The notes: a model not told the origin generated them from the sequence alone. A DNA stretch of 64,000 nucleotides from Nitrospirae bacterium GWF2_44_13 (GCA_001805105.1 MHEE01000013.1:23826-87825); one strand, 5' to 3'; shown: positions 1,645-44,808, counted from the stretch's first letter. Program-made: numbers and translations.

Positions 1645-1715
1645 GTTAAAAGTTTAAAATTTAAAATTTCAGATAGTCTTTAACTCTTAACTCCTAACTT
1701 TTAACTCTAAACTTG
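1645..1715. repeat. inverted heptanucleotide arrays (AAAGTTN units, then their complement TTAACTC/CTAACTT units)
   Basis: Read directly: GTTAAAA GTTTAAA ATTTAAA ATTTC..., then TTTAACT CTTAACT CCTAACT TTTAACT CTAAACT. GTTAAAAGTT (1645-1654) is complementary to AACTTTTAAC (1696-1705). Confidence 0.8.
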
Positions 1716-1723
1716 TCGTTATT

Positions 1724-1795
1724 GCCGGGGTAGCTCAGTGGTAGAGCAGCTGATTCGTAATCAGCAGGCCGAGGGTTCAACCCCCTTCCCCGGCT
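1724..1795 (+). tRNA. tRNA-Thr (anticodon CGT)
   Basis: Manual cloverleaf: acceptor GCCGGGG/CCCCGGC, D-arm GCTC-AGTGGTA-GAGC, anticodon arm GCTGA-TTCGTAA-TCAGC, 5-nt variable loop, T-arm GAGGG-TTCAACC-CCCTT. 72 nt, CCA not encoded. Confidence 0.85.
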
Positions 1796-1905
1796 CTTAA
1801 TTTTCCCGACAAGTTAAACCGTTTCAGAAAAAAGATGGACATTGATTTGGATTTATACGGCCTCTAAAAAACCATTGCTGAGGGTGCTGAAGGAATGAAG
1901 GAGTG

Positions 1906-1937
1906 AAAGCAGTCCAGACAAGTCGGGACTGCTTTTT
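1906..1937 (+). terminator. rho-independent terminator between convergent tRNA-Thr and csp (probably bidirectional)
   Basis: Stem AAAGCAGTCC/GGACTGCTTT with a ~10-nt loop, followed by TTTTT on the + strand. An A-run on the other side gives a weaker minus-strand version. Confidence 0.6.
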
Positions 1938-1940
1938 GGC

Positions 1941-2141
1941 TTAGAGTTTTACAACGTTTGCTGCCTTTGGCCCCTTGGGGCTGTCAACAACATCAAAGCT
2001 CACTGCCTGCCCTTCAGATAGAGACTTAAAGCCATCTCCCTGAAGCTCAGAATAGTGAACAAAAACATCTCCGCCGTCTTCACTGGTTATGAATCCAAAA
2101 CCCTTGGATTCATTAAACCACTTAACGGTTCCTTTTGCCAC
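1941..2141 (-). CDS. csp: cold-shock protein, CspA family
   Basis: ORF track, 66 aa: [25 protein letters not shown] (RNP1/RNP2 motifs). GTG start preceded by AAGGAGG. Confidence 0.95.
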
Positions 2142-2296
2142 TGTGCTGTACCTCCTTATTAAAAAACTTCCAAAACTTCATTTGCTATTCTGGCACAGAA
2201 TTCCTGAAATATCAACCCCGTTAGAAACTATTGTGGGGGCTTGCCCCGTGTGAAGCGCTGCTTCTATCGGGGCTTGCTTTTTAACGGGGTCAATCC

Positions 2297-2863
2297 TTAT
2301 TTCTTGCCTTTTGGTTTTTCCTTCGGTTTTACTTTTGGCGTACCTTTAGGCTTCCCTTTTGATTCATTAAGCCTCGTTATAACTGCACTCGTAAGGTCAA
2401 GTTCTTTCTTGGCAGAGAGAACTACCTCGCTTCTTAATATAACCGCATATCCCTCCTCGTACCCGATAGCATCCACAATGTCACTCACGTCTTTAAGAAT
2501 TGCATTTGTAAGCTCATTTTCTTTTTTCTGCAATTCTGTTCTCGCCTCAGCTACAAGCCTTTGGATATCTCTCTGAAGCTTCTCAAACTCCTCCTCTTTA
2601 GCCTTCTTGGCCTCGGCAGAAAGAACGGAAGACTGCTTTGCAATCTCTCCTTCCATTTTTTTAAGAGCATTGACCTTCTCTTCTATCACTGCCTTTTTTG
2701 ATTTTTCAATTGCCTCAATGTCAGCCCTTGCCTTTTTGCCTGCGTCTGATTCTGAAAATATACGCGGTAAATCAACGAACCCTATCTTGAGCGCTTCAGC
2801 CGCTCCCGCAGGTGAGACATAAAGCAGGACTGAACACAATGTTAATAGCAATATCTTCCTCAT
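2297..2863 (-). CDS. skp: periplasmic chaperone Skp/OmpH
   Basis: ORF track. Signal peptide MRKILLLTLCSVLLYVSPAGA, coiled-coil Lys/Glu-rich body, position directly downstream of bamA. Start moved to the internal ATG that has AAAGGAGG upstream. Confidence 0.8.
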   Translation of the reverse strand: MRKILLLTLCSVLLYVSPAGAAEALKIGFVDLPRIFSESDAGKKARADIEAIEKSKKAVIEEKVNALKKMEGEIAKQSSVLSAEAKKAKEEEFEKLQRDIQRLVAEARTELQKKENELTNAILKDVSDIVDAIGYEEGYAVILRSEVVLSAKKELDLTSAVITRLNESKGKPKGTPKVKPKEKPKGKK

Positions 2864-2927
2864 TTTTCCTCCTTTTTCAAGCTGCACTCCAACTCTCAGC
2901 TTTCTGACTTCTGATAACTGTGCCTAT

Positions 2928-5189
2928 TTAAAAAGCCGTGCCAAATGTAAATTCCCATTTGCTTTTGCTTTCCCCTGTTTTTGGATTTAAATTATGTCCC
3001 CATTCCAGTCTAATCGGACCTATAGGAGAGAACCATCTGAAGCCTATTCCTGCCCCGTATTTAAAATCCCCGAAGTCTTTAAAAGAATCAAAGGCCCTGC
3101 CTGCGTCAAAAAAAGTAACGCCTTTGAGTTTTAATTCGCTGACAAGAGGGAAGATGTATTCTGTATTAAATATAAGCTGTTTTGTCCCGCCTATTACTTC
3201 ACCATTTGCATCGCGCGGCCCGCCCTCTCCGAAACCAATGCCTCTCACAGTGTAAATGCCTCCGACATAAAATCTTTCATAAAGAGGAAGCGGTTTGTTG
3301 AATATCCCTGTTGCCTGTCCGTATCGGCCCCTGAAAGCCAGCGTTGTCTCTTCTGTGGCAGGGAAAAACCATGAAGAGTCAACACCGCCTTTTATGAAAA
3401 AATTGTCTCCGCCAAGCCCCGCATAGGTCACATACAGCAGGTTTTTTGAGCCTGTGTGAGGGTCAAGAAAACTATTCCTTGAATCCCTAACAATTGCAGG
3501 CGTAATACTGCTTGTTATTTTTTTGCCTTCCTGATCTTTTATACTCCCTGATGCATTTGGAGATATATTGTGTATTGTTACATTTTCAAGGTTGTATGTC
3601 ACATCTGTTTTCCAGTATTCGGACAGGCTTTTGCCCAGCAGCACATCAAACCCTGACGCTTTTCTGTCAAATGCCGAATATTTCCTTGTCGTTTTATAGA
3701 TATCGGTTCCGAACAAGAGTTCTTTATCAAGAAACCATGGGTCCCTGTATCCAAGGCTATACGCTGTGCTTCTGCCGCCGAATTCACCCTTTAATTTTAT
3801 GAGCCGCCCTGTGCCAAACAGATTTGCCTGCGTGACATCAGCAGTAGCAATGAACTTGTCAACAGAGCTGTAACCGCCTCCAACGCTGAGCATTCCTGTC
3901 GGCTTTTCTTTCACCTTTACATCAATGTCCAAAAGTTTTTCCTCAGGTTTAGGTTTTGGCTGCAGATCAACAGCTTCAAAAAAATTAAGGTTATTAAGCC
4001 TTTCATAGCTCCTTTTCAGGAGTTTGCTGTTAAACGTGTCTCCCTCATCAAGCCTGATTTCCCTTCTTATGACCTTATCCATGGTCTTGATATTGCCTGA
4101 TATGTCTATCCTGCCTATCTTGTAAATACCGCCCTCATCTATCTTGAAGGTTATCTTAACCTGCCTTGCAGCAGCATCAGGCTCAATGTCAGGGCCAACA
4201 TTAACGAGGGCATACCCTTTCTCCGCATACGTCTCTCCGAGCGCAGCCACGTCACTTCTCAGCATCGCCCTGCTGAATACATTCTTCGGAGCGGATTTTA
4301 TTTTTTTCCTCAATTCAGCTTCTGTGAATGCCTTATTCCCCGTAATATTCACGGAAGATATACTGAATTGCTCTCCTTCAGATATCATAATTGAGATTAT
4401 CATCCCTTTTTTATCCTCTGTAAGCTGGATCTTCGGGTCAGATACGGCAACCTTTATATATCCTTTATTAAAGTAGAGATTTTTTATCCTCTCAATATCA
4501 AAGTTCATCTCGTCTTTTTTATAGTAACCTGATGATGTGAAGAACGAGAACAGCCACCATTCGCTTGTTTGGATTGCCTTTTTTATTTCCTTTTTTGAGA
4601 TAACCTTGTTGCCTTCAATCACTATGGACTTTATCTTTACCTTAGGCCCTTCCTCTATTTGATATGTAAGCGTAACCTCATCATCATTCACCTTGTTCAC
4701 AACAGGGACGATTTTTGACAGGTAGTAGCCTTCCTCTTCGTAAAAGGCGCGCAGCTTCTCGGCATTATCCTGTATCAGGACAGTATCTGCTATGGAGTTT
4801 GCCGTGATTGTTATCTTCTCTTTCAGGTCTGAATCTTCCTGTTTTTTATTGCCCTGAAAGTCTATACTTATAATGGTTGGTTTCTCTTTTATCAGGTATA
4901 TAACCCTCACACCGCCTTCAAGCGGCTCTATTTCAACCTGGACGTCGTCAAAATAGCCCATCTTGTAAATGTCTTTTATGTCATTTGTAGTCTTCTCTGA
5001 TGAAAGCGGTTCTCCTGTTTTCTGTGTTATCTTGGATTTCACAGCAGCTTCCTCTATCCTCTTAAGCCCCCTAACCTCCATAGAATTCACCAGAGGCAGA
5101 GAAATTTCCTGCGCTGATACGCTCTCTGTCCCGCCTATAAACACTGCAAGTATTATAAACCAGAAAAAAAGTAAAGACGATTTTCTCAT
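2928..5189 (-). CDS. bamA: outer membrane protein assembly factor BamA
   Basis: ORF track, 776 aa. Repeated POTRA-like segments, a C-terminal beta-barrel ending in F, signal peptide after the internal start MRKSSLLFFW, skp downstream. Confidence 0.9.
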   Translation of the reverse strand: MRKSSLLFFWFIILAVFIGGTESVSAQEISLPLVNSMEVRGLKRIEEAAVKSKITQKTGEPLSSEKTTNDIKDIYKMGYFDDVQVEIEPLEGGVRVIYLIKEKPTIISIDFQGNKKQEDSDLKEKITITANSIADTVLIQDNAEKLRAFYEEEGYYLSKIVPVVNKVNDDEVTLTYQIEEGPKVKIKSIVIEGNKVISKKEIKKAIQTSEWWLFSFFTSSGYYKKDEMNFDIERIKNLYFNKGYIKVAVSDPKIQLTEDKKGMIISIMISEGEQFSISSVNITGNKAFTEAELRKKIKSAPKNVFSRAMLRSDVAALGETYAEKGYALVNVGPDIEPDAAARQVKITFKIDEGGIYKIGRIDISGNIKTMDKVIRREIRLDEGDTFNSKLLKRSYERLNNLNFFEAVDLQPKPKPEEKLLDIDVKVKEKPTGMLSVGGGYSSVDKFIATADVTQANLFGTGRLIKLKGEFGGRSTAYSLGYRDPWFLDKELLFGTDIYKTTRKYSAFDRKASGFDVLLGKSLSEYWKTDVTYNLENVTIHNISPNASGSIKDQEGKKITSSITPAIVRDSRNSFLDPHTGSKNLLYVTYAGLGGDNFFIKGGVDSSWFFPATEETTLAFRGRYGQATGIFNKPLPLYERFYVGGIYTVRGIGFGEGGPRDANGEVIGGTKQLIFNTEYIFPLVSELKLKGVTFFDAGRAFDSFKDFGDFKYGAGIGFRWFSPIGPIRLEWGHNLNPKTGESKSKWEFTFGTAF

Positions 5190-12153: not shown

Positions 12154-13818
12154 CTATTTACTCTCCTTTGCCTGTTTCAGCCCCTTCTGTGCCTTTACAT
12201 TTCCGGGGTCAAATTTCAATGCCTTTTCGAATTGCCCTGAGGCCCTCTTGTGCAGGCCTGCCTTAAGGTAAAGGGAGCCGAGATTTGCATAATGCTCTCC
12301 GTTTAAAGGTTCAAGTTTTATTGACTTAAGCAAAGCCTCTTCCGCTTCCTTCATTTTGTGAGGAACTTTTGAAAGCGACAGAGAGAGATAACTCCAGTAC
12401 TGCGGCTTTTCAGAATCTATATCTACTGCCTGCCTGAAAAGAGCAACAGCATCTTCAAACTTGCCCTTCTTGAATTCATCCACTCCCTTTTTGAACAGTT
12501 CCTCGCCCTCATCTTTTTCGCCTCTGCGAATCTCCGACACGATTTCTTTTTCTTCTTTTATTTCTTCTTCCTTTACCTCTTCCTCCAGCGTTCCTTCCAG
12601 AGGCACCTCTCCCCAAGACATTTCTTCTGCATGTTTCACTTCTTCAGGCATTCCCTCACCGGGCAGCTCGGGATGTGCCGCCTCTGTTTGTATTTCCTCT
12701 GCCTGTGCTTTCTCTTCCGGCATTTCATCTGCTTGTTTATTGAGAGAAGCGAAATATTCTTTTCTCTTATAGTCATCCTTCAAAACAGTATATGCCGCTG
12801 TAAGGGCGTCAAAGACTGCCGTAAGCTTATCCTTAAGCGCGGCGTCAGAGGTATTAAAATATCTGTCAGGGTGGAATTCCCGCGCAAGCCTGTAGTAATT
12901 CTTCTTGATTGCCTCCACATCAGCATCTTCGCCGGCCTCAAGGAGTTCGTTCAGTTTGAGCCTGTCAAGGTTTGAATATATCTCCTCCACCTTTTTTATC
13001 AACGTATCCTCTTCCTCGGCAAAGGGTTGGAGCAGTTCGTCCAATGATACGGTTCCGCCTGCTTCCTCTTTCTCCTCCTCCTCCCGAACAGCTTGGGACT
13101 TCTCAACTGTTTTTTCTTCAAGGATTCCGATAGACCACAAGACGTAAATAGTCTTCATCGCTTCAAATGAGTTCATCCACGAACTGTCAATAACCTCTTT
13201 GATTGTTTTTTTGCCGTCTATGATAGTGAGCATTTTCTTGTCATATGGGCTCAACTCCACATCCTGAAATAGGTTTAAAGGGTCTTTTGAAATGGTTAAC
13301 GCAATCCCTGTATCTGGCATCTCTCTCCTTATCCTGGTCCAGTTATCTATCCTTTTTACCCCTTCATGAATAAGATTGCCCATGCTCATCTTGAGGGTTA
13401 TGACCTCATCTGTCAGCACATCTCCTTCAACAAATTCACATTCGCCTTCCTCAAGCTGAAAAAGGCTGTAGATTATTTCTTTTACCTGATATTTAACTCC
13501 CCAGAAAAGGTCTTTAGGCGTCAGATACCCGAGGTCCACAAGTATTGCGCCCTGCCTTTTCTTCGTCCTTTTTAACATCTCCACGGATTTATCGTACTGC
13601 TCAACGGTAATCTTCCCAGCCTTAAGCAGCATTTCTCCGAGCCTGTCGTCTTCATACGATGAGGCTGCAAATATAACGTCACCCTTTACCAAATATGCCT
13701 TCTTAGTAAAATTAGGTGTGCTGACTGCAAGAGTTCCGGTTGCCCGCTTCCTGTGAAGATCGGTAAGTATTTTTGGAAGGCTGTATTCTCTTAGACTGCC
13801 TTTAAGTGCTGTTGCCAT
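12154..13818 (-). CDS. multidomain DUF4388(PATAN-like)/J-domain/TPR protein
   Basis: ORF track, 554 aa. N-terminal GSLREYSLPKILTDL..TGTLAV..GDVIFA (DUF4388 pattern). Central J-domain with NYYRLAREFHPDR. Acidic linker. C-terminal TPR repeats. Confidence 0.65.
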   Translation of the reverse strand: MATALKGSLREYSLPKILTDLHRKRATGTLAVSTPNFTKKAYLVKGDVIFAASSYEDDRLGEMLLKAGKITVEQYDKSVEMLKRTKKRQGAILVDLGYLTPKDLFWGVKYQVKEIIYSLFQLEEGECEFVEGDVLTDEVITLKMSMGNLIHEGVKRIDNWTRIRREMPDTGIALTISKDPLNLFQDVELSPYDKKMLTIIDGKKTIKEVIDSSWMNSFEAMKTIYVLWSIGILEEKTVEKSQAVREEEEKEEAGGTVSLDELLQPFAEEEDTLIKKVEEIYSNLDRLKLNELLEAGEDADVEAIKKNYYRLAREFHPDRYFNTSDAALKDKLTAVFDALTAAYTVLKDDYKRKEYFASLNKQADEMPEEKAQAEEIQTEAAHPELPGEGMPEEVKHAEEMSWGEVPLEGTLEEEVKEEEIKEEKEIVSEIRRGEKDEGEELFKKGVDEFKKGKFEDAVALFRQAVDIDSEKPQYWSYLSLSLSKVPHKMKEAEEALLKSIKLEPLNGEHYANLGSLYLKAGLHKRASGQFEKALKFDPGNVKAQKGLKQAKESK

Positions 13819-15343: not shown

Positions 15344-16402
15344 TCAGAGCCTGTACCCTTCAATGTTTGCGCTTTTTTTTGACAGCTTCTTCAGGTCTTT
15401 CGGCCTGAATGCGCCTTTTTCAGTGATAATTGCCGTCACATATTTTGCAGGAGTCACATCAAATGCCATATTTCTCACTTTCACGTTGTCAGGCGCAATC
15501 CGGCATCTGCCGAATATATGTGTAACTTCCTCTGCGCCTCTTTCTTCTATCGGAATCATATCGCCTGTCGGAATTGAAAAATCAATGCTGCTGAGTGGCG
15601 CGGCGACATAGAATGGTATTTTATGCTCTTTGCATAATACAGCTACAGAATACGTCCCGATTTTATTAGCCACATCTCCGTTCCTGACAGTTCTGTCAGT
15701 GCCGACAATGGCAAGGTCTATCTCGCCTTTTTTCATAAGCGCGCCCGCAGAGTTGTCTGTTATAAGCGTCACAGGCACGCCTGCCTGCATAAGCTCCCAT
15801 GCGGTAAGCCTCGCTCCCTGAAGCACTGGCCTTGTCTCATCAGCTATGACCTGTATCTTTTTCCCCTGTTCCATTGCTACAAATATCGGCGCTGTTGCCG
15901 TGCCGTACCCGCCTGTTGCAAGACTTCCTGCATTGCAGTGAGTGAGAACTGTATCGCCGTCTTTTATAAACTGCGCGCCCCATCTTCCTATTGCCTTATT
16001 AACCTCAATATCTTCTTCATGTATCTTTTTTGCCTCTTCAATGAGAAGTTCCTTTAACCGGGTAACCGATTCGCCGCGTCTCTCTTTTAAAAGCCTTTTT
16101 ATCCTCTCAACAGCCCATTTTATATTTACCGCCGTAGGCCTTGTTGAAAGCATGACATCAAATATGGCCTCTATGCCTTTTATGAAGTCCCTGTAATTCT
16201 TTGCCGTTATATCCTGTGCGCCAAGCGCAATTCCCATTGCCGCCGCAATGCCGATTGCAGGCGCGCCTCTTATCCAGAGTTTTTTTATGCCCTCCGCAAT
16301 GATATGATAATCAGCGCACTCTATGAATTTTACTTCCACGGGAAGAATGCTTTGGTCAAGCATTATAACCTTCCCGTCTCTCCACTCTATTGCCTTTACC
16401 AT
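15344..16402 (-). CDS. mtnA: S-methyl-5-thioribose-1-phosphate isomerase (eIF-2B alpha/beta/delta family)
   Basis: ORF track. IRGAPAIG, RPTAVN and CNAG..AT..GTA blocks. Start moved to MVKAIEW (ATG at 16402), which overlaps the upstream stop as TAATG. Confidence 0.85.
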   Translation of the reverse strand: MVKAIEWRDGKVIMLDQSILPVEVKFIECADYHIIAEGIKKLWIRGAPAIGIAAAMGIALGAQDITAKNYRDFIKGIEAIFDVMLSTRPTAVNIKWAVERIKRLLKERRGESVTRLKELLIEEAKKIHEEDIEVNKAIGRWGAQFIKDGDTVLTHCNAGSLATGGYGTATAPIFVAMEQGKKIQVIADETRPVLQGARLTAWELMQAGVPVTLITDNSAGALMKKGEIDLAIVGTDRTVRNGDVANKIGTYSVAVLCKEHKIPFYVAAPLSSIDFSIPTGDMIPIEERGAEEVTHIFGRCRIAPDNVKVRNMAFDVTPAKYVTAIITEKGAFRPKDLKKLSKKSANIEGYRL

Positions 16403-17643
16403 TAAATCTTTCCTCCCGCAGGCATTATGATTGTAACCACAAAAAATACAGCGAGACAGATTATAACCACTATTGTGCCCCACGATATGTAATTATAACT
16501 CTTCGGGTTTACATATTCTCCCATTATCTTTGCGTTGTTCACCAGCGACAGCGCATATATCAGAACAAAAGGCAGTAATATGCCGTTTACAACAGACGCC
16601 AGAATCATAAGGGAAACCAGTGGTGCGCCGGGAATCAATATCACCAACGCAGAAACAACTATGAGGGCGGTGTATATCCACATAAACTGAGGCGCTTCTC
16701 TGAATGTTTTATTGATGCCTGCTTCCCACCCCATTGCCTCGCATATGTAGTATGCTGTTGCCAGCGGGACTATTATCACTCCCAGAAGCGAACCATTGGC
16801 AAGGCAGAGAGCGAATATGAAAGACGCATATTCTCCAGCTAAAGGTTTGAGCGCAATTGCAGCCTCCGATGCCTCATTTATTCTTATGCCTGACGGAAAA
16901 AGCGTGGCTGCACATGTAACTATAATGAAAAAGGCAATTATGTCCGTTATAGAGCATCCCAGTATCACATCAAGCCTGGATGCTTTATAAGCCTCTTTTC
17001 TTATCCCCTTCTCTGCAATAGATGACTGGAGGTAAAACTGCATCCACGGTGTTATTGTTGTGCCTATTATTGCTATGCTAAGTATCGCATATTCGGAATC
17101 CCACTTTATTTGAGGCACAAATGTATTTTTGAAAACAGGAATCCAATCGGGTTTTGCCATAAACCCTGAGATAACATATCCGAAATATAAAAGGCACGCA
17201 AAGAGCAGCACTCTCTCAACTGCCCTGTAACTGCCTTTTGTAACAAGGAACCAAACTGACACCGCGCCAACAGGAACCATCACGTACTTGCTTAATCCGA
17301 GGATATCCATTGACGCTGCCCATCCTGCGAAATTAGCTAGAGTTGTGCCGAAATTTGCGATTAGAAGCGCTGCCATCATATAGAATGTTGATTTTACGCC
17401 ATAGTTTTCTCTTATGAGGTCTGAAAGCCCCTTGCCTGTGACAACTCCCATCCTTGCAACCATCTCCTGTATCACGACAAGCGCAACAGTCGTGGGTATC
17501 AAGGTCCAGAGCAATGAGTATCCGAACCTTGCGCCTGCCACAGAATAAGTGGTAATCCCGCTTGCATCATTATCTATATTTGCAGTTATGATGCCGGGCC
17601 CCATTACGCTCAGGAAGAGAAGAACTTTTTTGCTAAATCTCAT
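16402..17643 (-). CDS. NRAMP-related (SLC11 family) cation transporter with non-canonical metal-binding motifs
   Basis: ORF track, 413 aa, about 11 TM segments. Aligns to MntH (GPG..FGYSLLW), but DPGN is replaced by DASG and GAxxMPH by GTTITPW. Confidence 0.8.
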   Translation of the reverse strand: MRFSKKVLLFLSVMGPGIITANIDNDASGITTYSVAGARFGYSLLWTLIPTTVALVVIQEMVARMGVVTGKGLSDLIRENYGVKSTFYMMAALLIANFGTTLANFAGWAASMDILGLSKYVMVPVGAVSVWFLVTKGSYRAVERVLLFACLLYFGYVISGFMAKPDWIPVFKNTFVPQIKWDSEYAILSIAIIGTTITPWMQFYLQSSIAEKGIRKEAYKASRLDVILGCSITDIIAFFIIVTCAATLFPSGIRINEASEAAIALKPLAGEYASFIFALCLANGSLLGVIIVPLATAYYICEAMGWEAGINKTFREAPQFMWIYTALIVVSALVILIPGAPLVSLMILASVVNGILLPFVLIYALSLVNNAKIMGEYVNPKSYNYISWGTIVVIICLAVFFVVTIIMPAGGKI

Positions 17644-17664
17644 CAGACATACCTCTTAATATTT

Positions 17665-18927
17665 TTATACCCTTCTTCTCTTATGCTTTGCTGCCGGCGG
17701 CAGAATCCTGTCAATAATATCATCCACTGTAACAATGCCGAGGAGAAACCCTTCGCTGTCAACAACCGGAAGCGCAACAAGGTTATATTTCGATATAATA
17801 CCGGCAACCCGCATTTCATCAGTCTCAGGCGTGACTGTCTTGAACTTGGTTACCATAATATCCGACAGTTTTGTTTCAGGCGGAGAAAGCAGAATTTCCC
17901 TGAGCGACACCACCCCTTTGAGTTTCTCTTCAGCATCCGTTACATATATGTAATAGACGGTTTCAACTTCTTCTGCATCTCTTCTGAAACTTTCGATAGC
18001 CTCCTTTACGCTCGTTTCGGGCCTGTACGCTATAAACGCATTTGTCATAATACCGCCTGCTGTGTCTTCTTCATGCCCCATAAGTTCCTGAATGTCCTCT
18101 GCGTCCTCTTTTTCAAGACTGCCTAAAATTTCCTGCGCCTTTTCTGCGGACAGGTCGCTTATGACATCAGCAGCTTCATCAGGAGGCATCTCCTCTATGA
18201 TGTCAGCGGCTTTATCAGTATCCATCCCTGTTATTATTGCCGCCTGTGTCTCGGGTTCAAGTTCTGAAAGCGCCTCAGCAGCTGTTTCCGCATCAAGGCC
18301 CTTAAACAGAATAGCGCCCTCTTTGTGAGAAACCTGGCTTATTATCGCTGCCAGGTCCGCAGGATGCAGATCAGCCACCATCTGCCTTGGAACCGTGAGT
18401 GATATTGCAGTAAGTTTTGGTTCCAGCGGCTGTATATAATTCCAGCTTATAAGATTGTACGGCAGGTGCATCCTGAGAAGCCTCATCAGGTCTTCTCCGC
18501 CTCTCTCAACTCCGAGCCTCCTCATTATTCCCCTCATTCCCACATCAACGGCTAAAAGCACAGCCTCTGTGTTAAGCCCTTCGAGCTTGACGTCATTCAC
18601 CCTCACAACCTTTGCTCCATTTGCATCAACAATCTGCTTATCAAAAATATCCCTTGCCACAAGCAGGTCTTTCTCGCTGAGTTCGTAGGACTGAAGCCTT
18701 GCGCCGTAAATATTCGCGGCGATTATTCTTTTATTGAATATGCTCAAATCACTCCATTGGAGATTAAAGAGCTTTCTTTTCCTCTCGATAACAAGGTTGG
18801 AAATCTTCGGCAATGGCTCGCCTTTAACAACAACAAGGTCCTTCACCCTGCCGAGTTCTTCGCCTCTAGGGTCAAGGACAGGTTTTCTTAATATTTCACT
18901 TACAAAAAGTTCACTGAAAAAAGGCAT
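17665..18927 (-). CDS. soluble PRC-barrel / MgtE-N / CBS-pair protein (MgtE cytosolic sensor module without channel domain)
   Basis: ORF track, 420 aa. MgtE_N-like acidic helical repeat (DLHPADLAAII...DKAADIIEEMPPDEAADVISDL), then two CBS motifs. The protein ends after the CBS pair with no TM region. Confidence 0.75.
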   Translation of the reverse strand: MPFFSELFVSEILRKPVLDPRGEELGRVKDLVVVKGEPLPKISNLVIERKRKLFNLQWSDLSIFNKRIIAANIYGARLQSYELSEKDLLVARDIFDKQIVDANGAKVVRVNDVKLEGLNTEAVLLAVDVGMRGIMRRLGVERGGEDLMRLLRMHLPYNLISWNYIQPLEPKLTAISLTVPRQMVADLHPADLAAIISQVSHKEGAILFKGLDAETAAEALSELEPETQAAIITGMDTDKAADIIEEMPPDEAADVISDLSAEKAQEILGSLEKEDAEDIQELMGHEEDTAGGIMTNAFIAYRPETSVKEAIESFRRDAEEVETVYYIYVTDAEEKLKGVVSLREILLSPPETKLSDIMVTKFKTVTPETDEMRVAGIISKYNLVALPVVDSEGFLLGIVTVDDIIDRILPPAAKHKRRRV

Positions 18928-19043
18928 CTCTATCTCCTGGATATTATCGGGACTTAACTGCTAATTATAAAGTATAGCTTACTGGTTTTTATTTCAGCAA
19001 TACAGAAATGATACTGGTTAAAAGAAACGGGTAATAATTCAAA

Positions 19044-19892
19044 CTAAACGAATACCGGCTTTGACGATTTTTTTATTATCCCTCTCTCCTCTGCCATGTC
19101 CAGAAGTTTCCTTACGGCTCTTATGCCGTCATCGCCAAGGTCAATCGAATAATCATTGACATAGAGCTTGATATGTTCATCAATAACGGAATCATCAAGC
19201 TCCCGTGAATGCTCTTTTATATATTTCACCCCGAGCATCTCGGGGCGGCTCATTGCATATTGCACGCTTTCCCTTATAAGTCTCTCAATTTTGCTAATAA
19301 CATCTATCCCCAGACTTCTCTCTGCGATAATACAGCCCAATGGTATCGGCATATCTGTCTCCTTTTCCCACCACGCACCAAGGTCAATAATCTTTTTCAG
19401 CCCATAAGATGAATAAGTAAATCTTCCTTCATGGATTATCAGCCCTGCATCAGCTTTTCCCTCTTTAACCGCACCCATAATTTCATGAAACGGCATCGCT
19501 TTGACATTACTCCTGAAATCAGGGTCATAAAGCTGTAAGAGAAGATAAGCTGTGGTAAGCTCTCCGGGGATTGCTATTGTCTTTCCTTTCAAATCTTTCA
19601 TTTCACATTCTTTTGAAGCTACAACCAATGGCCCGCATCCCCTTCCAAGCGCTCCGCCTGAACGCAGAAGACAGTAATCATCCCTAAGATTCCCAAATGC
19701 GTTATATGAAACTTTTGTTATATCAAGCTCTCTTTTCATCGCACTCAGGTTGAGAGTTTCCACATCAAGCAGGATTTCCTTGAATTTTAAGCCACCTGTA
19801 TCTATCTTCCCATGCACAAGCGCATAAAAGATGAAGGTGTCATTCGGACAGGGGGAGTATCCAAGAGAAAGGGTTCTCATTTTAATGGACAT
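19044..19892 (-). CDS. mqnD: 1,4-dihydroxy-6-naphthoate synthase (futalosine pathway, MqnA/MqnD family)
   Basis: ORF track, 282 aa. LGYSPCPNDTFIFYALVHG N-terminal block, recalled as characteristic of MqnD. Confidence 0.7.
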   Translation of the reverse strand: MSIKMRTLSLGYSPCPNDTFIFYALVHGKIDTGGLKFKEILLDVETLNLSAMKRELDITKVSYNAFGNLRDDYCLLRSGGALGRGCGPLVVASKECEMKDLKGKTIAIPGELTTAYLLLQLYDPDFRSNVKAMPFHEIMGAVKEGKADAGLIIHEGRFTYSSYGLKKIIDLGAWWEKETDMPIPLGCIIAERSLGIDVISKIERLIRESVQYAMSRPEMLGVKYIKEHSRELDDSVIDEHIKLYVNDYSIDLGDDGIRAVRKLLDMAEERGIIKKSSKPVFV

Positions 19893-20518
19893 CCTTCACA
19901 AACAGGTTTTGGCTTGCAGAATTCTTTTCCTACTCTCACAAACAACGCATGATATTCGTTAAATAGCCTAACATCTTTTTTAAACGCAGAATGGAAAAGC
20001 TCCTGAAATTTATCGTATGCCTCATCATGCCCTAAAATATTATGCCTTGAGAGAACCCTTTTGGTATAAGCATCAATAACAAAAATGGGCTTATCAAGTA
20101 CATAGAGAAGAATAGAATCCGCTGTCTCAGGGCCCATGCCGTTAACATCAAGAAGTTTTTTCCTGAGTGAATGAATCTCTTCACTTCCCATCTTCTTCAT
20201 GCTTCCGTGATAAGCATTCATCAGAAAATTAATAAACGACTTAAGCCTTTTTGCTTTGATATTAAAATAACCTGACGGCTGTATTAATAAGGCAAGTTTT
20301 TTCACGGGCATATCATGAATAGCCTTTGCATTCAGGACTTTCTCTTTTTTTAGATTATTTATCGCCTTCTCAACGTTCCCCCAGTTTGTATTCTGCGTAA
20401 GTATTGCGCCGACTGCAACCTCAAAAGGCGTATCGCCCGGCCACCAGTTCTGCGGGCCAAAGGATTTGTAGAGTTTTTTGTAGATTGAGACAAGTTTTTT
20501 GTTTTTCATAACCTTCAC
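19877..20518 (-). CDS. HhH-GPD superfamily endonuclease III-related protein
   Basis: ORF track, 213 aa. ILTQNTNW, a helix-hairpin-helix LLDVNGMGPETADSILLY, and a C-terminal Cys cluster CKPKPVCEGCPL. Confidence 0.75.
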   Translation of the reverse strand: MKVMKNKKLVSIYKKLYKSFGPQNWWPGDTPFEVAVGAILTQNTNWGNVEKAINNLKKEKVLNAKAIHDMPVKKLALLIQPSGYFNIKAKRLKSFINFLMNAYHGSMKKMGSEEIHSLRKKLLDVNGMGPETADSILLYVLDKPIFVIDAYTKRVLSRHNILGHDEAYDKFQELFHSAFKKDVRLFNEYHALFVRVGKEFCKPKPVCEGCPLK

Positions 20519-22242
20519 CCCACCTTCACCTTTTTCTGCATCTCAAAAAGATCGATTATCTCCTTGACAGAATTAGCATCCTCGGGCTTTTTGTCTTCTC
20601 TCAGAAAGCCGACTGCCCTTGGGAAGCGCAGTGCGTAGCCTATGCCTTCCTTGTCCTTGCCTGCTGTATGTGAAGGAGAGCGTGTAATTTCATCTGCCGT
20701 GACTGTCACAACATATCTCGGCTCTACCCATACATCTGCCTCCATAACGGAATCTACCCTCGGATGCCTGTGAGAGATAGATATTTCATCAAGGATTTTT
20801 TTGAGCTGGAGAAATTCATCCTCTGAAAAGCCTGTGCCGACCTTGCTTACAGTCTTGAATGAGTCTGTCTTTGGCTCATAGACTGCGCCGAGAAAAGCCC
20901 CTACACCGAACTTTGCCCTTGCTCCCTTGCCCCTGAAATAACCGACTATGCACACATCAATCGTATCTGCAAGCTCTCCCCTGTAACTTCTCTTAAGTTT
21001 AATCCAGTTGAAGTTCCTGCCTCCCGCTGCATAGGGCGCATCAAGCCTTTTCGCAACAACACCCTCAAGCCCCCTTGCTATGGCATCCTCAAAATATTTT
21101 GTGATATCTTCATGCCTGTCCGTGATAAACAATTCAGACGGTTCAATCACAGAATTCTTCTTTATAATTTTTTTCAGCTTCTCTCTTCTTTCACTGAAAA
21201 GCTTTGGAGTATAGTCCTCTCCATCTGCATAAAGAAGATCAAAGGCAAAAAACTTCAGGGGATATTCTTTTGCAAGTTCCTCAATCCCGTGCTTTCTTTT
21301 TCTTTGAATCGTAATCTGAAATGGAAAAAGCTCGCCTGTTGATTCATTGTATGCAAGCGCTTCCCCTTCAATGATTGCAGTATCCGCAGTTATAAAATTT
21401 TTTACAGCCTCTTTTATCTCGGGGAACATGAGAGTTGTCCTCTCAAGGTTTCTTGAGAACATGTCAATATTATTTTTGTTTTTATGAATCTGCACCCTGA
21501 AACCGTCGTATTTAGCCTCTATGGCAGCTTCCCCTATTTTCTCTATAATCTCCTCCGATGAAGGAAGCCTTTCACACAACGCCATGCGTATCGGATAACC
21601 GACTCTCACATGAAATTTATTTACCCCCCCTATCCCCTTTTCAAGTAATGTTTTTGCAACAAGCCCCAGATCGGAGCAGAGGTTATAAGCCCTTTCAAGC
21701 TCGGGCCTTAATGATCTGTCTCCCTGCGCAAGCGCCAAGGCTTCGAGCACAGTTGGATCGCCGATTCCAAGCCTCAACCTACCGATAACAAACCGCGCAA
21801 TATACTTTGCCTCTTCCGGAGATACTCCCCTTAAAAGACTGCTTAGAAGCCCAATCTTCTTTTCAACGCTTCCTGTGCCTGAGGTCCGGGCAATGGCCGT
21901 AAGTTCTTCATAAACTTTTCTGACTGTAAGATTTTCTCCTTTGTTTTTTATCAATTCCACGGCAGTTTTCCCGAGGTCTCCTGTGTGTTTAAATACATCC
22001 TCAACTTTTTTTGTAGGCGTATTCGTCGCATCTGATATTGCCCTGACAAGAAGTTTTTCCGACATGCCCATCTCAAGGCCGTGAAAAGGCGGAAGAAGCT
22101 CCCCCTGGCCGAGATAGATTATCTTATCTATATCATCTGCATTTGATTCTTTGAAAAGCTGAGAAAGGATATGAAACATCTCAAGTCGCTTTGAGGTTGC
22201 CTCAAGCTTTTCAAAATATTCAACGAGTTTCAGAAATTTCAT
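20515..22242 (-). CDS. lig: ATP-dependent DNA ligase, three-domain (archaeal/eukaryotic Lig1-like)
   Basis: ORF track, 575 aa. Adenylation motif I EAKYDGFRVQIH, a long N-terminal DNA-binding domain and a C-terminal OB domain. Confidence 0.9.
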   Translation of the reverse strand: MKFLKLVEYFEKLEATSKRLEMFHILSQLFKESNADDIDKIIYLGQGELLPPFHGLEMGMSEKLLVRAISDATNTPTKKVEDVFKHTGDLGKTAVELIKNKGENLTVRKVYEELTAIARTSGTGSVEKKIGLLSSLLRGVSPEEAKYIARFVIGRLRLGIGDPTVLEALALAQGDRSLRPELERAYNLCSDLGLVAKTLLEKGIGGVNKFHVRVGYPIRMALCERLPSSEEIIEKIGEAAIEAKYDGFRVQIHKNKNNIDMFSRNLERTTLMFPEIKEAVKNFITADTAIIEGEALAYNESTGELFPFQITIQRKRKHGIEELAKEYPLKFFAFDLLYADGEDYTPKLFSERREKLKKIIKKNSVIEPSELFITDRHEDITKYFEDAIARGLEGVVAKRLDAPYAAGGRNFNWIKLKRSYRGELADTIDVCIVGYFRGKGARAKFGVGAFLGAVYEPKTDSFKTVSKVGTGFSEDEFLQLKKILDEISISHRHPRVDSVMEADVWVEPRYVVTVTADEITRSPSHTAGKDKEGIGYALRFPRAVGFLREDKKPEDANSVKEIIDLFEMQKKVKVG

Positions 22243-34984: not shown

Positions 34985-37057
34985 TTACAGCAGTGGAACA
35001 ATCAGAAGCGCAACAATATTAATAACCTTTATCATAGGGTTGATTGCCGGTCCTGCTGTATCCTTGTAAGGATCGCCGACTGTGTCGCCTGTTACAGAGG
35101 CTTTATGTCCATCGCTCCCCTTCTTGTGTACGACACCTTTGTCATCGGTAACGCCCTCTTCAAAGGATTTCTTGGCGTTGTCCCATGCGCCGCCGCCGCT
35201 TGTCATGGCGATAGCCTGGAAAAGTCCGGTAAGGATACTTCCGATAAGTACGCCTCCGAGGGCCTCTCTGCCGAGAGTAAGACCTACAACAACAGGAATA
35301 ACAACTGGGATAAGCGCAGGAACCATCATCTGCTTGATAGCGCCTTTTGTGACAATATCAACGCACTTGCCATATTCCGGCTTTGCCTTATATTCCATAA
35401 TGCCGGGGATCTCCCTGAACTGTCTTCTGACTTCATCAACAATGCTGCCTGCTGCCTTTCCAACAGCCTCCATAAGGAGTGAGCCGTAATAATAAGGGAG
35501 CAGACCGCCGATAAAGAGACCTGCCAGAACCATTGGATTTGAAAGGTCAAAATAAAGGATCTCGCTGAACGATCTTGAATACTCTGCAAAAAGAACCAGA
35601 GCTGCAAGACCTGCTGAACCGATTGCATAACCCTTTGTAACAGCCTTTGTTGTGTTTCCGACTGCATCCAAGGGGTCTGTGATGTTACGGATCTCTGCAG
35701 GAAGTCCTGACATTTCTGCGATACCGCCTGCGTTGTCAGTGATCGGTCCATACGAGTCGATAGCAACAACGATACCTGTCATCGAAAGCATTGAAACCGC
35801 TGACAATGCAATAGCAAAAAGACCGCCAGCTGCATCACCGGCAAATCCACCGCCTAAATGATAAGCTCCGAGAATTGAGGCAACGATAACTATAACAGGC
35901 GCAGCGGTTGATTTCATGCTGACAGCAAGACCTGCTATAACGTTTGTGCCGTGACCGGTCAGACTGGCCTTTGCAATGTGTTTCACCGGGGGATACTGCG
36001 AAGCAGTGAAGTACTCAGTTATAACCACGATCAGTCCGGTCAATGCAAGGCCGATAACCGCCATAAGGAAAACGTTCATCTGTGTAAATGAAGGGTGAGA
36101 GGCCATTGAAGTCGCATCTACGCCTTTCAGAAATTCACCTGTCACAAAATAAAATACTATTGCCGCGAGAACTCCGGCAACGGCAAGCCCCTTATAGAGG
36201 GCCCCCATGATGTACTGGCTTTTGCCAAGCTTTACGGCAAATGTTCCGATAATGGAAGCTATGATTGATATTCCGCCGAGGAGCATCGGGAATTCCACCC
36301 ATGGGCTCTCAGCGCCAAAAACAGTCTTTGCAAGAAGCATTGCCGCAACAAGCGTAACAGTGTATGTCTCATAAAGGTCTGCTGCCATGCCTGCGCAGTC
36401 GCCTACGTTATCACCAACGTTGTCCGCAATAACCGCAGGGTTTCTTGGATCATCCTCGGGGATACCTGCTTCAACTTTTCCAACAAGGTCAGCGCCTACG
36501 TCAGCAGCCTTTGTATAAATACCGCCTGCAATACGCGCAAACACGCTCATGAGTGAGCATCCGAAGCCAAGCCCTACCAGTGCATGGAATGCCATCTCAG
36601 GGGCTGCCTGCTTTGCTATAAAATAAAATCCCGCAAGGCCTATAATTCCGAGACCAACGACCATAACTCCTGTCACTGAGCCGCCCTTGAACGCAAGGCT
36701 GAGCGCAGACTGGAGGCCCTTGTACGCAGCCTGCGTGGTGCGTACGTTTGCGCGGACAGTAACCCACATGCCTACAAAACCGGCAAGCGCTGAACCGACT
36801 GTGCCGACGATAAAGCCGATAGCAGTCCAAATGCCGAGATTCATCGCCGCGATAAGGACAACGAGAATCACTGCAACCATCGCTACAGTTTTATATTCGC
36901 GTGCCAGGAAGGCATAAGCTCCCTCTTTAACAGCATTTGATATCTCCTGCATCTTCGCACTTCCTGCGTCCTGTTTTGATACCCACATTGCGGTCATCAC
37001 AGCGTATATCACGCCTAATAATCCGCAACCTAAGGCAAAAAGAATTGTTGAACTCAT
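34985..37057 (-). CDS. hppA: membrane-bound proton-translocating pyrophosphatase (K+-independent type)
   Basis: ORF track, 690 aa, polytopic. [26 protein letters not shown] and GNTTKA motifs. The Lys in GNTTKA marks the K+-independent subclass. Confidence 0.95.
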
Positions 37058-37212: not shown

Positions 37213-38385
37213 TTACTTCACTTCACGTCCCGAATATTTTGCGAACACCAGAGCCGTAGTCCTGTATGCCATATGCGCCATCTTCGAAAACGGCGCATAG
37301 GCAAAAAGAAAAAATACAGCCACAAGATGAGTGAAATACACAGGATATGCGAGAATAGGGATATTAGCGAGCCTTAAAACCTCTGAAAGAATCCCGGTCG
37401 TCACGATAGTTAATATTACGCTGATAAAGAGCCAGTCATAATAGCTTCCGCTTCCTGCCTTTTCAGCATTCTTCTGCCTGTTTGTGATGACCAGAAGTAT
37501 TCCTGAAAGAAGCACGAGGGCGCTGATGTTTCCGAATATCTTCATAGGGTCATACTGAGGATAGGGTGTTTCTCCAAAGTGAAAGATGGCAGTCGGCTGA
37601 ATACCGAAAATTTCATAGCCATATAAATAGGCAACGCCCCAGGCAGTTGTAATAGCAAGGCCGACAAAACCAAAAAATACGAACATATGAGAATTAGCGC
37701 GCTCAACTGTTACATCACATTTCTTAAATCTCTTATGGGTCACGAACTCAAGAATAGTATTAATGATGATCATGAGCATCGGGCCTTTAACCTTCTTCTG
37801 CCACGGGTTGTCGCTTATATCCACGCCTGATTTAAGGTCTTTCCAGTATCTTGTTATTCCCATTATAAACCCGGCCAACGCAAACAATGCCGCGGCGCTG
37901 AATATAACGTCGATGTAGGGAACTTTCATGAAAGTCTCTGCATATACTATCTTTCCTTCAGGGATAAGGGAATGCCCCTGCATCATCAGAGCAAGTATAA
38001 AGATAATTACCGGCACCACGAGAAGAGCAAGCAGGGCTTTCGGACTGCCTACGGCCTTTCCGAGAAAGCTTGGGAAGGCGTAATGCTCTATGCTCAGTTT
38101 TCTTATCGCACCGAGCACTTCACCGGGCTTCGCCCCTCTGGGACAATATGCTGTGCAGTCGCTGCACTGATGACAGAGCCATATATCGGGATTGCTGAGA
38201 AGCTTATCTTTCAGCCCCCACTGCGCGTGCAGCATTTCTTTTCTCGGGAAAGGCTTGTCATCAGGCGTCACATTGCATACAACTGAGCAGGTTGCGCACT
38301 GAAAACATTTTTTGAGAGACTCTCCTCCGGAACTGATAACATCGTTTATAAAATTTAAGTCAGATTTAATAATCTGTTCTGCCAT
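37213..38385 (-). CDS. qmoC: quinone-interacting membrane-bound oxidoreductase subunit QmoC (HdrC-like FeS + heme-b membrane domain)
   Basis: ORF track, 390 aa. CFQCATCSVVC and CHQCSDCTAYCP ferredoxin-like motifs, then ~6 TM helices. Follows qmoAB. Confidence 0.85.
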   Translation of the reverse strand: MAEQIIKSDLNFINDVISSGGESLKKCFQCATCSVVCNVTPDDKPFPRKEMLHAQWGLKDKLLSNPDIWLCHQCSDCTAYCPRGAKPGEVLGAIRKLSIEHYAFPSFLGKAVGSPKALLALLVVPVIIFILALMMQGHSLIPEGKIVYAETFMKVPYIDVIFSAAALFALAGFIMGITRYWKDLKSGVDISDNPWQKKVKGPMLMIIINTILEFVTHKRFKKCDVTVERANSHMFVFFGFVGLAITTAWGVAYLYGYEIFGIQPTAIFHFGETPYPQYDPMKIFGNISALVLLSGILLVITNRQKNAEKAGSGSYYDWLFISVILTIVTTGILSEVLRLANIPILAYPVYFTHLVAVFFLFAYAPFSKMAHMAYRTTALVFAKYSGREVK

Positions 38386-38399
38386 TGACTCCTCCTCTT

Positions 38400-38469
38400 G
38401 TTATAAGTTATAAGTTTAAAGTTAGAAGTTTTTGAACTTTTCACTTTTCACTTTTAACTCTCAACTCCC
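38400..38469. repeat. inverted heptanucleotide arrays filling the qmoB-qmoC intercistronic spacer
   Basis: Read directly: GTTATAA GTTATAA GTTTAAA GTTAGAA GTTTTTG, then AACTTTT CACTTTT CACTTTT AACTCTC AACTCCC. The two arms are approximately complementary. Confidence 0.85.
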
Positions 38470-38473
38470 TTAT

Positions 38474-40699: not shown

Positions 40700-40705
40700 A
40701 TGTCT

Positions 40706-41959
40706 CTACCTCCTCGCGCTCTGAATGGTTTTGATTGCGACCCCTGTTGCATCCTGAACCGATTTTGCAACGTCAACAGGACTCTTCGCCGTTCCGACCG
40801 CGTACATGCCTTTCTTTAAGTATGACGCTACTACAAAACCATCGTGTGTATATGAAATCTCGCCAGGTACCTTTGAAGCCTTTGTTGAGGGCACCATACC
40901 GGCTGCAAGTACAACCATATCGTATTTTTCAGTAATCTTATTGCCCGCCAATACGTCTTCTACCACTAATTCAACATCACCGGTCGCGCTGTCTTCCGTA
41001 ATCTTGGCGACCTTGCCCTTTGTCAGCGTTACATTCGGGTCTTCCTTGACCTTCCAGTAAAACTGTTCATACCTGCCGGGGGTCCTGATGTCAATATAGA
41101 ATATCCGCACCTTGGAATCAGGATACTGCTCCCTTAAATATGTGGCCTGTTTCAAAGAAGCCATGCAGCAGATATATGAGCAGTACGGCAGGTGGTTTTC
41201 ATCCCTGCTCCCGGCGCACTGGACAAAGGCGATGTTCTTGACTTCCTTTCCGTCGGATGGCCTCAGTATCTTACCGGATGTCGGACCATTTATCGAGGCG
41301 AGCCTCTCCATCTGCATATTAGTTATTACATTCTTGATATTCCCGCCGCCGAGGTTATCCAGCTTGGCCGTGTCATATAAGTCCCAGCCTGTTGCAATAA
41401 CAACTGACGCCACATTCAGATTGACCGTATCGGGCTTCATATCAAGATCAATTGCATCGTATTTGCATGCCTCAACGCATTTTGCGCATGACTTCCCCTT
41501 ACAGTGCTTGCCGTCAATGGCATACTTAAACGGAAAAGCTTGATTGTGGGTAATGTATGCGGCCTTTGTCTTATCGAGACCGAAGTTGAATTCATTCGGC
41601 ATCTCAACAGGACATGCCTCATTGCAGGCATTGCAGCCGACACACTTGTCATTAATAAACCGCGAGTTAATTTTTATTGTGACATTGTAATTCCCTTCCT
41701 GGCCGGAAATACTCTCAACCTCTGCAAGGGTATAAAAGGAAATGTCCGCATTGTTTTTGATCCTCTTAAAATTTATCTCCAGTCCGCAGTTTGGAGGACA
41801 CAGTTTCGGGAAATACTTATTCAATTGGGTTACCCTTCCTCCGAGAAACGGGGTCTTTTCCACAATAACCACATCTGATCCTGCCTCAGCCGATTCAACT
41901 GCGGCAGTAAGCCCGCTGAACCCTCCTCCGATTACTAAAACCTTTTTCTTTTCTGCCAT
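40706..41959 (-). CDS. qmoA: QmoA (HdrA-like flavoprotein)
   Basis: ORF track, 417 aa. VIGGGFSGLTAA dinucleotide fold and CVGCNACNEACP cluster. Directly downstream of aprA. Confidence 0.9.
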   Translation of the reverse strand: MAEKKKVLVIGGGFSGLTAAVESAEAGSDVVIVEKTPFLGGRVTQLNKYFPKLCPPNCGLEINFKRIKNNADISFYTLAEVESISGQEGNYNVTIKINSRFINDKCVGCNACNEACPVEMPNEFNFGLDKTKAAYITHNQAFPFKYAIDGKHCKGKSCAKCVEACKYDAIDLDMKPDTVNLNVASVVIATGWDLYDTAKLDNLGGGNIKNVITNMQMERLASINGPTSGKILRPSDGKEVKNIAFVQCAGSRDENHLPYCSYICCMASLKQATYLREQYPDSKVRIFYIDIRTPGRYEQFYWKVKEDPNVTLTKGKVAKITEDSATGDVELVVEDVLAGNKITEKYDMVVLAAGMVPSTKASKVPGEISYTHDGFVVASYLKKGMYAVGTAKSPVDVAKSVQDATGVAIKTIQSARR

Positions 41960-44164: not shown

Positions 44165-44177
44165 TTATACCTACCTC

Positions 44178-44597
44178 CTATTCTGTTCTTGCCGGCCCGT
44201 TAAAGAACCCCGGCTGTTTAAGCGTTGCAAAATCCGGCGCCGGCTTGCCTGCATACGGATCAACGGAACCTTCTGTTGTTGTTCTTATAGGGAACTTAAA
44301 TCTCTTCAATACCCCATTCCTGAACTTGATCGTCCACATAATAGAGTCGGTGCCTCTCAATGGGATAGTGCTGGACCCAAGGGGAACAAAGTCTGAATAA
44401 CCCCTGACCTCAATGGCCTGCTGAGGGCATATCTTCACACAGTTAAAGCACTCCCAGCACTGCTCGGGTTCCTGATTGTATGCCTTCATCTTTTCCCTGT
44501 CAAGCGCCATCAAATCATGAGGACAGATATACTGACATGCAGTCTTATCCTGCGCCTTGCAACCGTCACACTTTTCTGTAATAACAAAACTCGGCAT
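44178..44597 (-). CDS. aprB: adenylylsulfate (APS) reductase beta subunit
   Basis: ORF track, 139 aa. MPSFVITEKCDGCK...CQYICPHD and CWECFNCVKICP two-[4Fe-4S] motifs with an extended C-terminal tail. Confidence 0.95.
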   Translation of the reverse strand: MPSFVITEKCDGCKAQDKTACQYICPHDLMALDREKMKAYNQEPEQCWECFNCVKICPQQAIEVRGYSDFVPLGSSTIPLRGTDSIMWTIKFRNGVLKRFKFPIRTTTEGSVDPYAGKPAPDFATLKQPGFFNGPARTE

Positions 44598-44700
44598 TTT
44601 TACCTCCTTCAGCGATATTGTTTTTAATACAAAATCGGCTTTAGCTTAAAGCCGTAAATCTCTTACTTATTCCTTCACCCCCTTTTCATTAAGTTTATAG

Positions 44701-44764
44701 TGTCAGTGGCAAATCTTACTGACACTAGCCACTGATACTGAATACTGATTTACTGACACTGTTA
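44701..44764. repeat. heptanucleotide array of the ACTGNNN/CAGT family in the sat-aprB spacer
   Basis: Read directly: TGTCAGT ...TTACTGA CACTAGC CACTGAT ACTGAAT ACTGATT TACTGAC ACTGTTA. Confidence 0.7.
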
Positions 44765-44808
44765 TCTTATGCGCCTTTAGAATATTTATGAACTTTAATT
44801 TCGACAAT

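Follow-up and report, generated by a model that had tools for sequence, protein, structure and literature searches.

Does a soluble protein resembling the cytosolic half of the magnesium channel MgtE regulate the SLC11-family transporter whose gene follows it? The question is raised by two adjacent genes in a 64,000-nucleotide stretch of DNA (the window) from Nitrospirae bacterium GWF2_44_13 (GCA_001805105.1 MHEE01000013.1:23826-87825), which encode a transporter of the NRAMP-related Mg2+ transporter (NRMT) clade and an MgtE-like partner. The pairing is real, widely conserved and already known since 2014, and the window adds an ordinary member to it. We put at about 0.5 the probability that the two genes constitute a module for cation uptake of the kind published as "mgtE-like fragment + nrmT", in which the partner regulates the carrier in trans; this most likely reading is the published feedback idea with further particulars. 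The original prediction had taken the pairing to be uncharacterized, but Shin et al. 2014 (PLoS Genet 10:e1004429, PMC4072509) had reported it together with the feedback idea. The locus is laid out as follows.

16402..17643 (-): gene of the NRMT-clade SLC11 transporter, 413 amino acids (open reading frame; Pfam Nramp 334.5 bits, E-value 9.7e-100)
17665..18927 (-): gene of the soluble MgtE-like partner, 420 amino acids (PRC, PRC, MgtE_N, CBS pair, basic tail; open reading frame and Pfam)
17644..17664 (-): spacer between the partner and transporter genes, 21 nt, with the ribosome-binding site AAGAGG

Open reading frames of 420 and 413 codons on one strand had been claimed, and both are found as described, on the minus strand; the gap between them measures 21 nt rather than the 22 nt first given, and the AAGAGG lies 7 nt ahead of the transporter ATG. 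Both are real genes and not chance reading frames, since a protein identical to the transporter is recorded for the metagenome-assembled genome (MAG) Nitrospirae bacterium GWF2_44_13 (Thermodesulfovibrionales) and each of the two has thousands of homologues. Beyond this pair, the window yielded no MgtE, NRAMP or CorA-like (GMN motif) gene.

A search of the PDB with the transporter returns the Eggerthella lenta protein EleNRMT (7qia) with an E-value of 4.3e-106, versus 4.5e-31 for DraNramp; the sequence identities are 44.6% to EleNRMT over approximately 400 residues, 28.0% to DraNramp and 26.2% to E. coli MntH. The phmmer alignment with EleNRMT runs without gaps at an unchanging offset of 29, and published residue numbers therefore carry over directly. 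The full-length Nramp domain (PF01566) scores far above its gathering score of 29.8, whereas the MntH-specific models remain far under their cut-offs (NF001923, 145.7 vs 430; TIGR01197, 71.9 vs 272.5). In a neighbor-joining tree computed without bootstrap, for which DraNramp and E. coli MntH served as the root, the transporter falls deep within the NRMT clade, among Thermodesulfovibrionia sequences that form a monophyletic group, and a long branch divides it from MntH. Its transport site reads DxxG-TxxT, which is one of the two published forms of the NRMT signature, DxxG-TxxA/T (Ramanadane et al. 2022, eLife, PMC8806188). Judged by these sequence comparisons, the transporter is an NRMT-clade SLC11 protein and not a canonical Mn2+/Fe2+ NRAMP. 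The NRMT assignment made beforehand is thus borne out by the EleNRMT match, the signature, the tree and the low MntH scores, and the phylogenetic placement that had been suggested as a check puts the protein inside the NRMT clade and not with canonical Mn2+ NRAMPs. The databases label the transporter "Mn transporter" and its partner "magnesium transporter MgtE", and the present analysis corrects this pair of labels.

The residues that define the transport site are the following, where TM denotes a transmembrane helix.

17557..17568 (-): TM1 site motif D26-A-S-G29 (EleNRMT D55..G58), from the alignment
17044..17064 (-): TM6 site motif G194-T-T-I-T-P-W200, aligned with DraNramp G-A-T-V-M-P-H
17332..17334 (-): N104 at the TM3 glutamate position (EleNRMT E133, DraNramp E134)
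16594..16596 (-): S350 at the TM10 glutamine position (EleNRMT Q379), from the ungapped phmmer alignment with offset 29

The replacement of DPGN by DASG and of GAxxMPH by GTTITPW, noticed earlier in the sequence, is confirmed by alignment to DraNramp, in which N-D-A-S-G falls upon M-D-P-G-N. With canonical NRAMPs such as DraNramp and E. coli MntH the transporter has in common the Pfam family, the LeuT fold and the TM1 Asp; it differs at 26-28% identity, in AxxM having become TxxT, and in that other residues stand for the His, Glu and Gln that serve the proton and metal network. With EleNRMT (7QIA, PMC8806188) it shares the clade, the equivalents of D55 (D26), G58 (G29) and T224 (T195), and the TM6b Trp; it differs in having Thr for A227 (T198, the second of the published variants), Asn for E133 and Ser for Q379. 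T224 of EleNRMT is needed for Mg2+ transport (PMC8806188). W200 stands in place of the proton-acceptor His of NRAMP TM6b, and L205 occupies the second His position; the work on EleNRMT links this His-to-Trp change to uncoupled transport, which is therefore to be expected here as well. In a sample of 64 full-length proteins, each representing a cluster at 50% identity, TM6 most often reads TxxT (21), followed by TxxS (16) and TxxA (14).

The positions of E133 and Q379 are kept in EleNRMT, in most NRMTs and in canonical NRAMPs, and both are changed in this transporter. Near the site EleNRMT keeps only two protonatable residues, of which E133 is one, and the Q379A mutant is strongly compromised in transport (PMC8806188). 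Within the sample, the combination of N/D in TM3, S/A in TM10 and TxxT occurs only in the Thermodesulfovibrionia subclade. This subclade has exchanged E133 for N and Q379 for S, a loss of two site residues conserved elsewhere that is a new finding here. As both lie outside the published signature, the clade membership of the transporter stands, but its functional equivalence to EleNRMT is less certain.

The partner had been described as a soluble protein of 420 residues with PRC, MgtE_N and CBS domains and no membrane domain; Pfam and the absence of a transmembrane segment confirm this description, to which a second PRC barrel and a basic tail are added.

18706..18912 (-): first PRC barrel, residues 6-74 (PF05239, 32.6 bits vs cut-off 21.2)
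18415..18657 (-): second, divergent PRC barrel, approximately residues 91-171, with a 22-residue insertion (hhalign)
18064..18369 (-): MgtE_N domain, residues 187-288 (PF03448, 99.8 bits)
17704..18051 (-): CBS pair, residues 293-408 (Pfam, two CBS domains)
17668..17688 (-): polybasic C-terminal tail KHKRRRV, in place of the MgtE plug helix

The best PDB match of residues 180-411 is the cytosolic domain of Thermus thermophilus MgtE (2yvy, E-value 4.5e-42), and the mgtE model TIGR00400 scores 186.7 against a cut-off of 232.75, covering only profile positions 24-251 of 450, i.e., the cytosolic half. There is no match in the partner to PF01769, the five-helix MgtE pore domain, and no plug helix; the protein lacks a transmembrane segment, its sole hydrophobic stretch (residues 383-402) corresponding to CBS β-strands. 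Since PF01769 and a transmembrane segment are lacking and TIGR00400 remains below its cut-off, the partner is not an MgtE channel.

Its N domain and CBS pair are nevertheless homologous to those of T. thermophilus MgtE (2YVX, 2YVY), and this permits the ligands to be compared, using the Mg2+ site assignments of PMC5882242, the ATP-site residues of PMC5529423 and a numbering offset checked on twelve known residues. The Mg4 ligands D91 and D247 of MgtE are D250 and D403 of the partner, D95 of Mg6 is D254 and E59 of Mg7 is E218; Mg5 is kept in part, D250 being D406 and D226 being N382. Across 57 NRMT-linked partners D91 is Asp in 88%, D95 in 96% and D247 in 89%, while E59 is Glu or Asp in 75% and D250 is Asp or Glu in 67%; the mapped ligand positions are acidic in 67-98% of these proteins, with the exception of D226, which is usually Asn. 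In the ATP site, Y170 and R187 are kept as Y326 and R343, but the adenine contacts N203 and F227 have become V359 and L383, so that nucleotide binding by the partner is doubtful. The partner further differs from MgtE in lacking the pore and the Mg1-Mg3 sites, and in possessing two extra N-terminal PRC barrels. Its polybasic tail takes the place of the MgtE plug helix, a substitution that is newly recognized here; 29 of the 57 aligned partners, including all those of Nitrospirota, have a K/R-rich tail, defined as at least four K/R past the last CBS strand.

The second PRC barrel gives a weak Pfam PRC match (E-value 0.02) that is not called at default thresholds, and comparison of the sub-alignments of the two barrels with hhalign yields a probability of 84% and an E-value of 7.5e-6. 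It carries most of the invariant residues of the whole protein (D96, Q98, R109, N111, D112, G130, R136, R137 and W162), and these columns hold in sets of 21 and of 15 sequences from many phyla of bacteria and archaea. To judge by such invariance across phyla, the partner is under strong purifying selection. The tandem PRC module is its most conserved part, which is likewise new here, and with its invariant residues it likely forms a docking surface. A profile of this module finds only marginal PRC-barrel matches in the PDB (E-values of at least 0.02) and no solved homologue. AlphaFold2, run on an alignment of 35 sequences of 52-98% identity, returned a mean predicted local distance difference test score (pLDDT) of 60.5 and a predicted template modeling score of 0.32; the first PRC barrel reaches pLDDT values of about 50-80, whereas residues 88-181, at about 30, are unreliable. 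Shin et al. 2014 call the partner a "small protein" with no mention of the tandem PRC barrels, which make up its first 180 or so residues, and the searchable library yielded no later paper that characterizes the partner or mentions these barrels.

Conservation of gene order was examined in a scan of one genome per species, in which the best 80 loci from 593 relatives were kept; the query was a 10-sequence transporter alignment, a 40-sequence version being too diverse. In 57 of the 76 loci with enough upstream sequence the partner lies directly upstream on the same strand, and in three more it is adjacent on the opposite strand. The hosts belong to the Nitrospirota, Acidobacteriota, Deltaproteobacteria, Firmicutes, Planctomycetes, Omnitrophota, Methanocellaceae and Methanobacteriaceae; the partner is present at all 11 loci of the window's own subclade. 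The neighborhood comparison that had been recommended as a check on the pairing thus reveals strong conservation over numerous phyla of bacteria and archaea. Spacers in 58 related loci have a median of approximately 35 nt, nine loci having a 4- or 7-nt overlap, and nearly all full-length partners (413-457 amino acids) contain the PRC region. In spot checks of distant relatives, the partner adjoins three NRMTs of about 40% identity (L082, L088 and L089). At the first of these the partner gene (L082:2-961), which stands beside an EleNRMT-like transporter, is interrupted by a stop in frame when read with code 11, and translation of the called genes fails to give the recorded proteins, which suggests a recoded stop codon; when read through, this partner ends in a single strongly hydrophobic segment, which could be a membrane anchor.

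These observations are in keeping with the work of Shin et al. 2014, who named the NrmT group, described "mgtE-nramp operons", noted that most NrmT genes adjoin a gene for an MgtE cytoplasmic domain and proposed feedback regulation, with "metal chaperone" as an alternative role for the partner (PMC4072509). The same gene pair in the same order as in the window is found in the Clostridium acetobutylicum Ca_c0685/Ca_c3329 and Acidobacterium capsulatum ACP2976/ACP2977 operons; C. acetobutylicum divides the partner between two genes, whereas in the window it is one. EleNRMT was studied alone, and PMC8806188 does not discuss a partner protein.

The region ahead of the pair was searched for regulatory elements.

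18928..19043 (-): upstream intergenic region, 116 nt, AT-rich, with the ribosome-binding site GGAG

Rfam reveals no M-box, an Mg2+ riboswitch possessed by only a subset of the family, at the gathering threshold in the whole window, nor at an E-value threshold in 17500-20600, so that the window resembles the A. capsulatum pair in this respect. Promoter-like matches in 18928..19043 are no more frequent than in shuffled sequence. In a second set of 18 diverse loci an M-box precedes the partner and NRMT operon in a Firmicutes MAG (L080) and in a Coriobacteriia MAG (L042), and another (L031:3039-3205, Peptococcaceae bacterium CEB3) stands immediately ahead of an NRMT gene for which no MgtE-like partner occurs within 3.5 kb. 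These finds reproduce the link to Mg2+ of Shin et al. 2014, for those lineages only. The order in L042 is M-box (1195-1365), partner (1648-3453) and transporter match (3501-4712); its partner, at 601 amino acids, comprises PRC, MgtE_N, a CBS pair and C-terminal hydrophobic segments, whose match to the MgtE membrane domain is weak (24.5 bits, below cut-off). In evolution, such a protein could stand between MgtE and the soluble partner. Two Smithella loci contain a PyrR-binding-site RNA motif just over the Rfam gathering score (L029:1945-2047 and L030:1942-2046, minus strand), approximately 110 nt upstream of the partner gene and on the opposite strand.

How might such a module work? Clade membership, site residues, domain content, retention of the Mg4, Mg6 and Mg7 ligands and operon linkage are matters of observation; what we infer is physical contact, the substrate and the direction in which regulation acts. 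By homology to EleNRMT, the carrier would take up a hard divalent cation in largely hydrated form, most likely Mg2+ and probably Mn2+ too, in a process that would not be coupled to protons and would be driven by the membrane potential. MgtE and CorA, other electrophoretic Mg2+ uptake systems, are closed by built-in cytosolic Mg2+ sensors, which NRMTs lack (PMC5882242). The carrier has no cytosolic domain of its own, and the co-translated partner of 420 residues would supply one in trans; the tandem PRC barrels and polybasic tail would hold it at the membrane or on the carrier, where it would slow or block transport once the cytosolic cation suffices. It would do so while keeping the Mg2+ sites between domains through which the MgtE cytosolic domain is driven to close, the coupling of plug helix to pore having presumably been exchanged for the PRC module and a membrane-directed C-terminus. 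The polybasic C-terminus here and the C-terminal hydrophobic segments in L042 suggest that the C-terminus of the CBS pair lies at the membrane, as in MgtE. NRMTs are the fourth class of prokaryotic Mg2+ importers and are uncoupled, and the conserved MgtE-like partner is the obvious candidate for a regulator that guards against overload. The window offers no new principle, but it sharpens the hypothesis: the comparison separates the MgtE Mg2+ sites that the partner has kept from those that it has lost, and flags a subclade with an altered transport site. A more specific proposal is possible, and is put forward tentatively: a detachable PRC-PRC-MgtE_N-CBS subunit might dock onto the NRMT via the invariant second PRC barrel (R109, N111, D112, R136, R137 and W162) and its membrane-directed C-terminus and gate the LeuT-fold carrier by cytosolic Mg2+. 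If true, the subunit would do in trans what the sensors built into MgtE and CorA do within those proteins. In addition, the Thermodesulfovibrionia site (E133N, A227T, Q379S) might be remodeled further and have a cation preference unlike that of EleNRMT.

A number of results weigh against a carrier of Mg2+ that is controlled by its partner. A. capsulatum ACP2977 fully rescued a Mn2+-uptake mutant and only partly a Mg2+-uptake mutant, and co-expression of ACP2976 with ACP2977 in Bacillus subtilis left the Mg2+ rescue unchanged (PMC4072509); moreover, Ca_c0685, Ca_c3329 and EleNRMT all transport without a partner. Fifteen of the 76 NRMT loci (20%) have no partner within 3.5 kb, and three other distant NRMTs, one of them from the DGDTSYQQ group, are without one. 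No sensor-transporter fusions were found among the 150 best cluster representatives (the longest being 526 amino acids) or in the 80 loci, where apparently long open reading frames proved to be start-codon over-extensions in high-GC contigs. The correlation of sensor and transporter identities in a mirror-tree comparison is r = 0.65 overall and 0.21 without close pairs, and is not informative beyond shared phylogeny. The plug-helix ligands of Mg2 and Mg3 (E258 and D259), which in MgtE couple sensing to the pore, are absent; there is no M-box in the window or in its 18 nearest loci; and the changes E133N and Q379S make extrapolation of the substrate from EleNRMT less safe for the Thermodesulfovibrionia subclade. 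Our confidence stays near even on account of the negative co-expression result of 2014, the partner-less fifth of the loci and the altered E133 and Q379 positions.

The module might instead be mainly an importer of Mn2+ or another transition metal, its partner sensing a ligand other than Mg2+, e.g., Mn2+ or an adenine nucleotide. ACP2977 is the sole tested NrmT that is associated with a partner and lacks a riboswitch, as is the case in the window, and its preference for rescuing Mn2+ uptake speaks for this alternative, as do the transport of Mn2+ besides Mg2+ by EleNRMT, the missing M-box, the database label "Mn transporter" and the changes at E133 and Q379. We consider it rather unlikely: the transporter lacks both the soft-ligand Met and the Asn by which transition-metal selectivity is defined, the equivalent of T224 is present and the partner retains MgtE Mg2+ ligands, while sensing of an adenine nucleotide is countered by the loss of the adenine-stacking F227 and of N203. 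The claim made at the outset, that the pair takes up Mg2+ or another hard cation with the help of an MgtE-like protein, stands as regards the conserved linkage; Mg2+ as the substrate is not secure, because the A. capsulatum NrmT acts mainly on Mn2+, an M-box is wanting and two site residues differ from EleNRMT.

It is also unlikely, to a degree that exceeds the Mn2+ alternative, that the partner has no action on the transporter and is a co-expressed cytosolic binder of cations or nucleotides, serving as a buffer, a chaperone or the regulator of some other target. Such a role would agree with the "metal chaperone" option and the ineffective co-expression of Shin et al. 2014, with the lack of fusions and the weak co-evolution signal, and with the loci that do without the protein; it agrees less well with tight linkage in fixed order and on a fixed strand over distant phyla and with the 4-nt overlaps, which are typical of subunits of one machine, and the invariant surface of the second PRC barrel and the membrane-directed C-termini fit docking better than a free cytosolic role. 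That the transporter is an ordinary H+-coupled Mn2+/Fe2+ MntH, with the MgtE-like gene as an unrelated neighbor or a decayed, split MgtE, is highly improbable, even though generic Nramp models match it. The MntH-specific models are far below cut-off, DPGN, AxxM and the TM6b His are all replaced, and a long branch parts the protein from MntH, while strong purifying selection on the partner, with residues invariant across phyla, contradicts decay or a chance neighbor; the MntH reading is refuted by the sequence evidence.

One further gene adjoins the pair on its downstream side.

15344..16402 (-): IF-2B/MtnA-family gene, its ATG overlapping the transporter stop (TAATG)

In this overlap the TAA stop of the transporter shares bases with the ATG of the IF-2B/MtnA-family gene (16402-16404, minus strand), which suggests co-transcription and translational coupling of the two. 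An IF-2B/MtnA-family gene is located 3′ of the transporter in 10 related Thermodesulfovibrionia loci (L001-L006, L008, L009, L014 and L041); this places a methylthioribose-1-phosphate-isomerase-like gene beside a cation importer. The minus strand yielded no terminator-like site, which, taken together with the TAATG overlap, indicates that the pair is embedded in a longer co-directional array. The same array includes a protein of 554 amino acids with DUF4388, a DnaJ domain and TPR repeats (12154-13818, minus strand).

Elsewhere in the window, Pfam identifies sat (ATP sulfurylase), aprBA (the APS reductase AprBA) and an H+-pyrophosphatase gene at 34985-37057 and 42161-46035 (minus strand), from which the host is likely a dissimilatory sulfate reducer, in agreement with a sulfate-reducing member of the Thermodesulfovibrionales. 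The open reading frames between these genes, at 37213-41959, may encode an associated electron-transfer complex.

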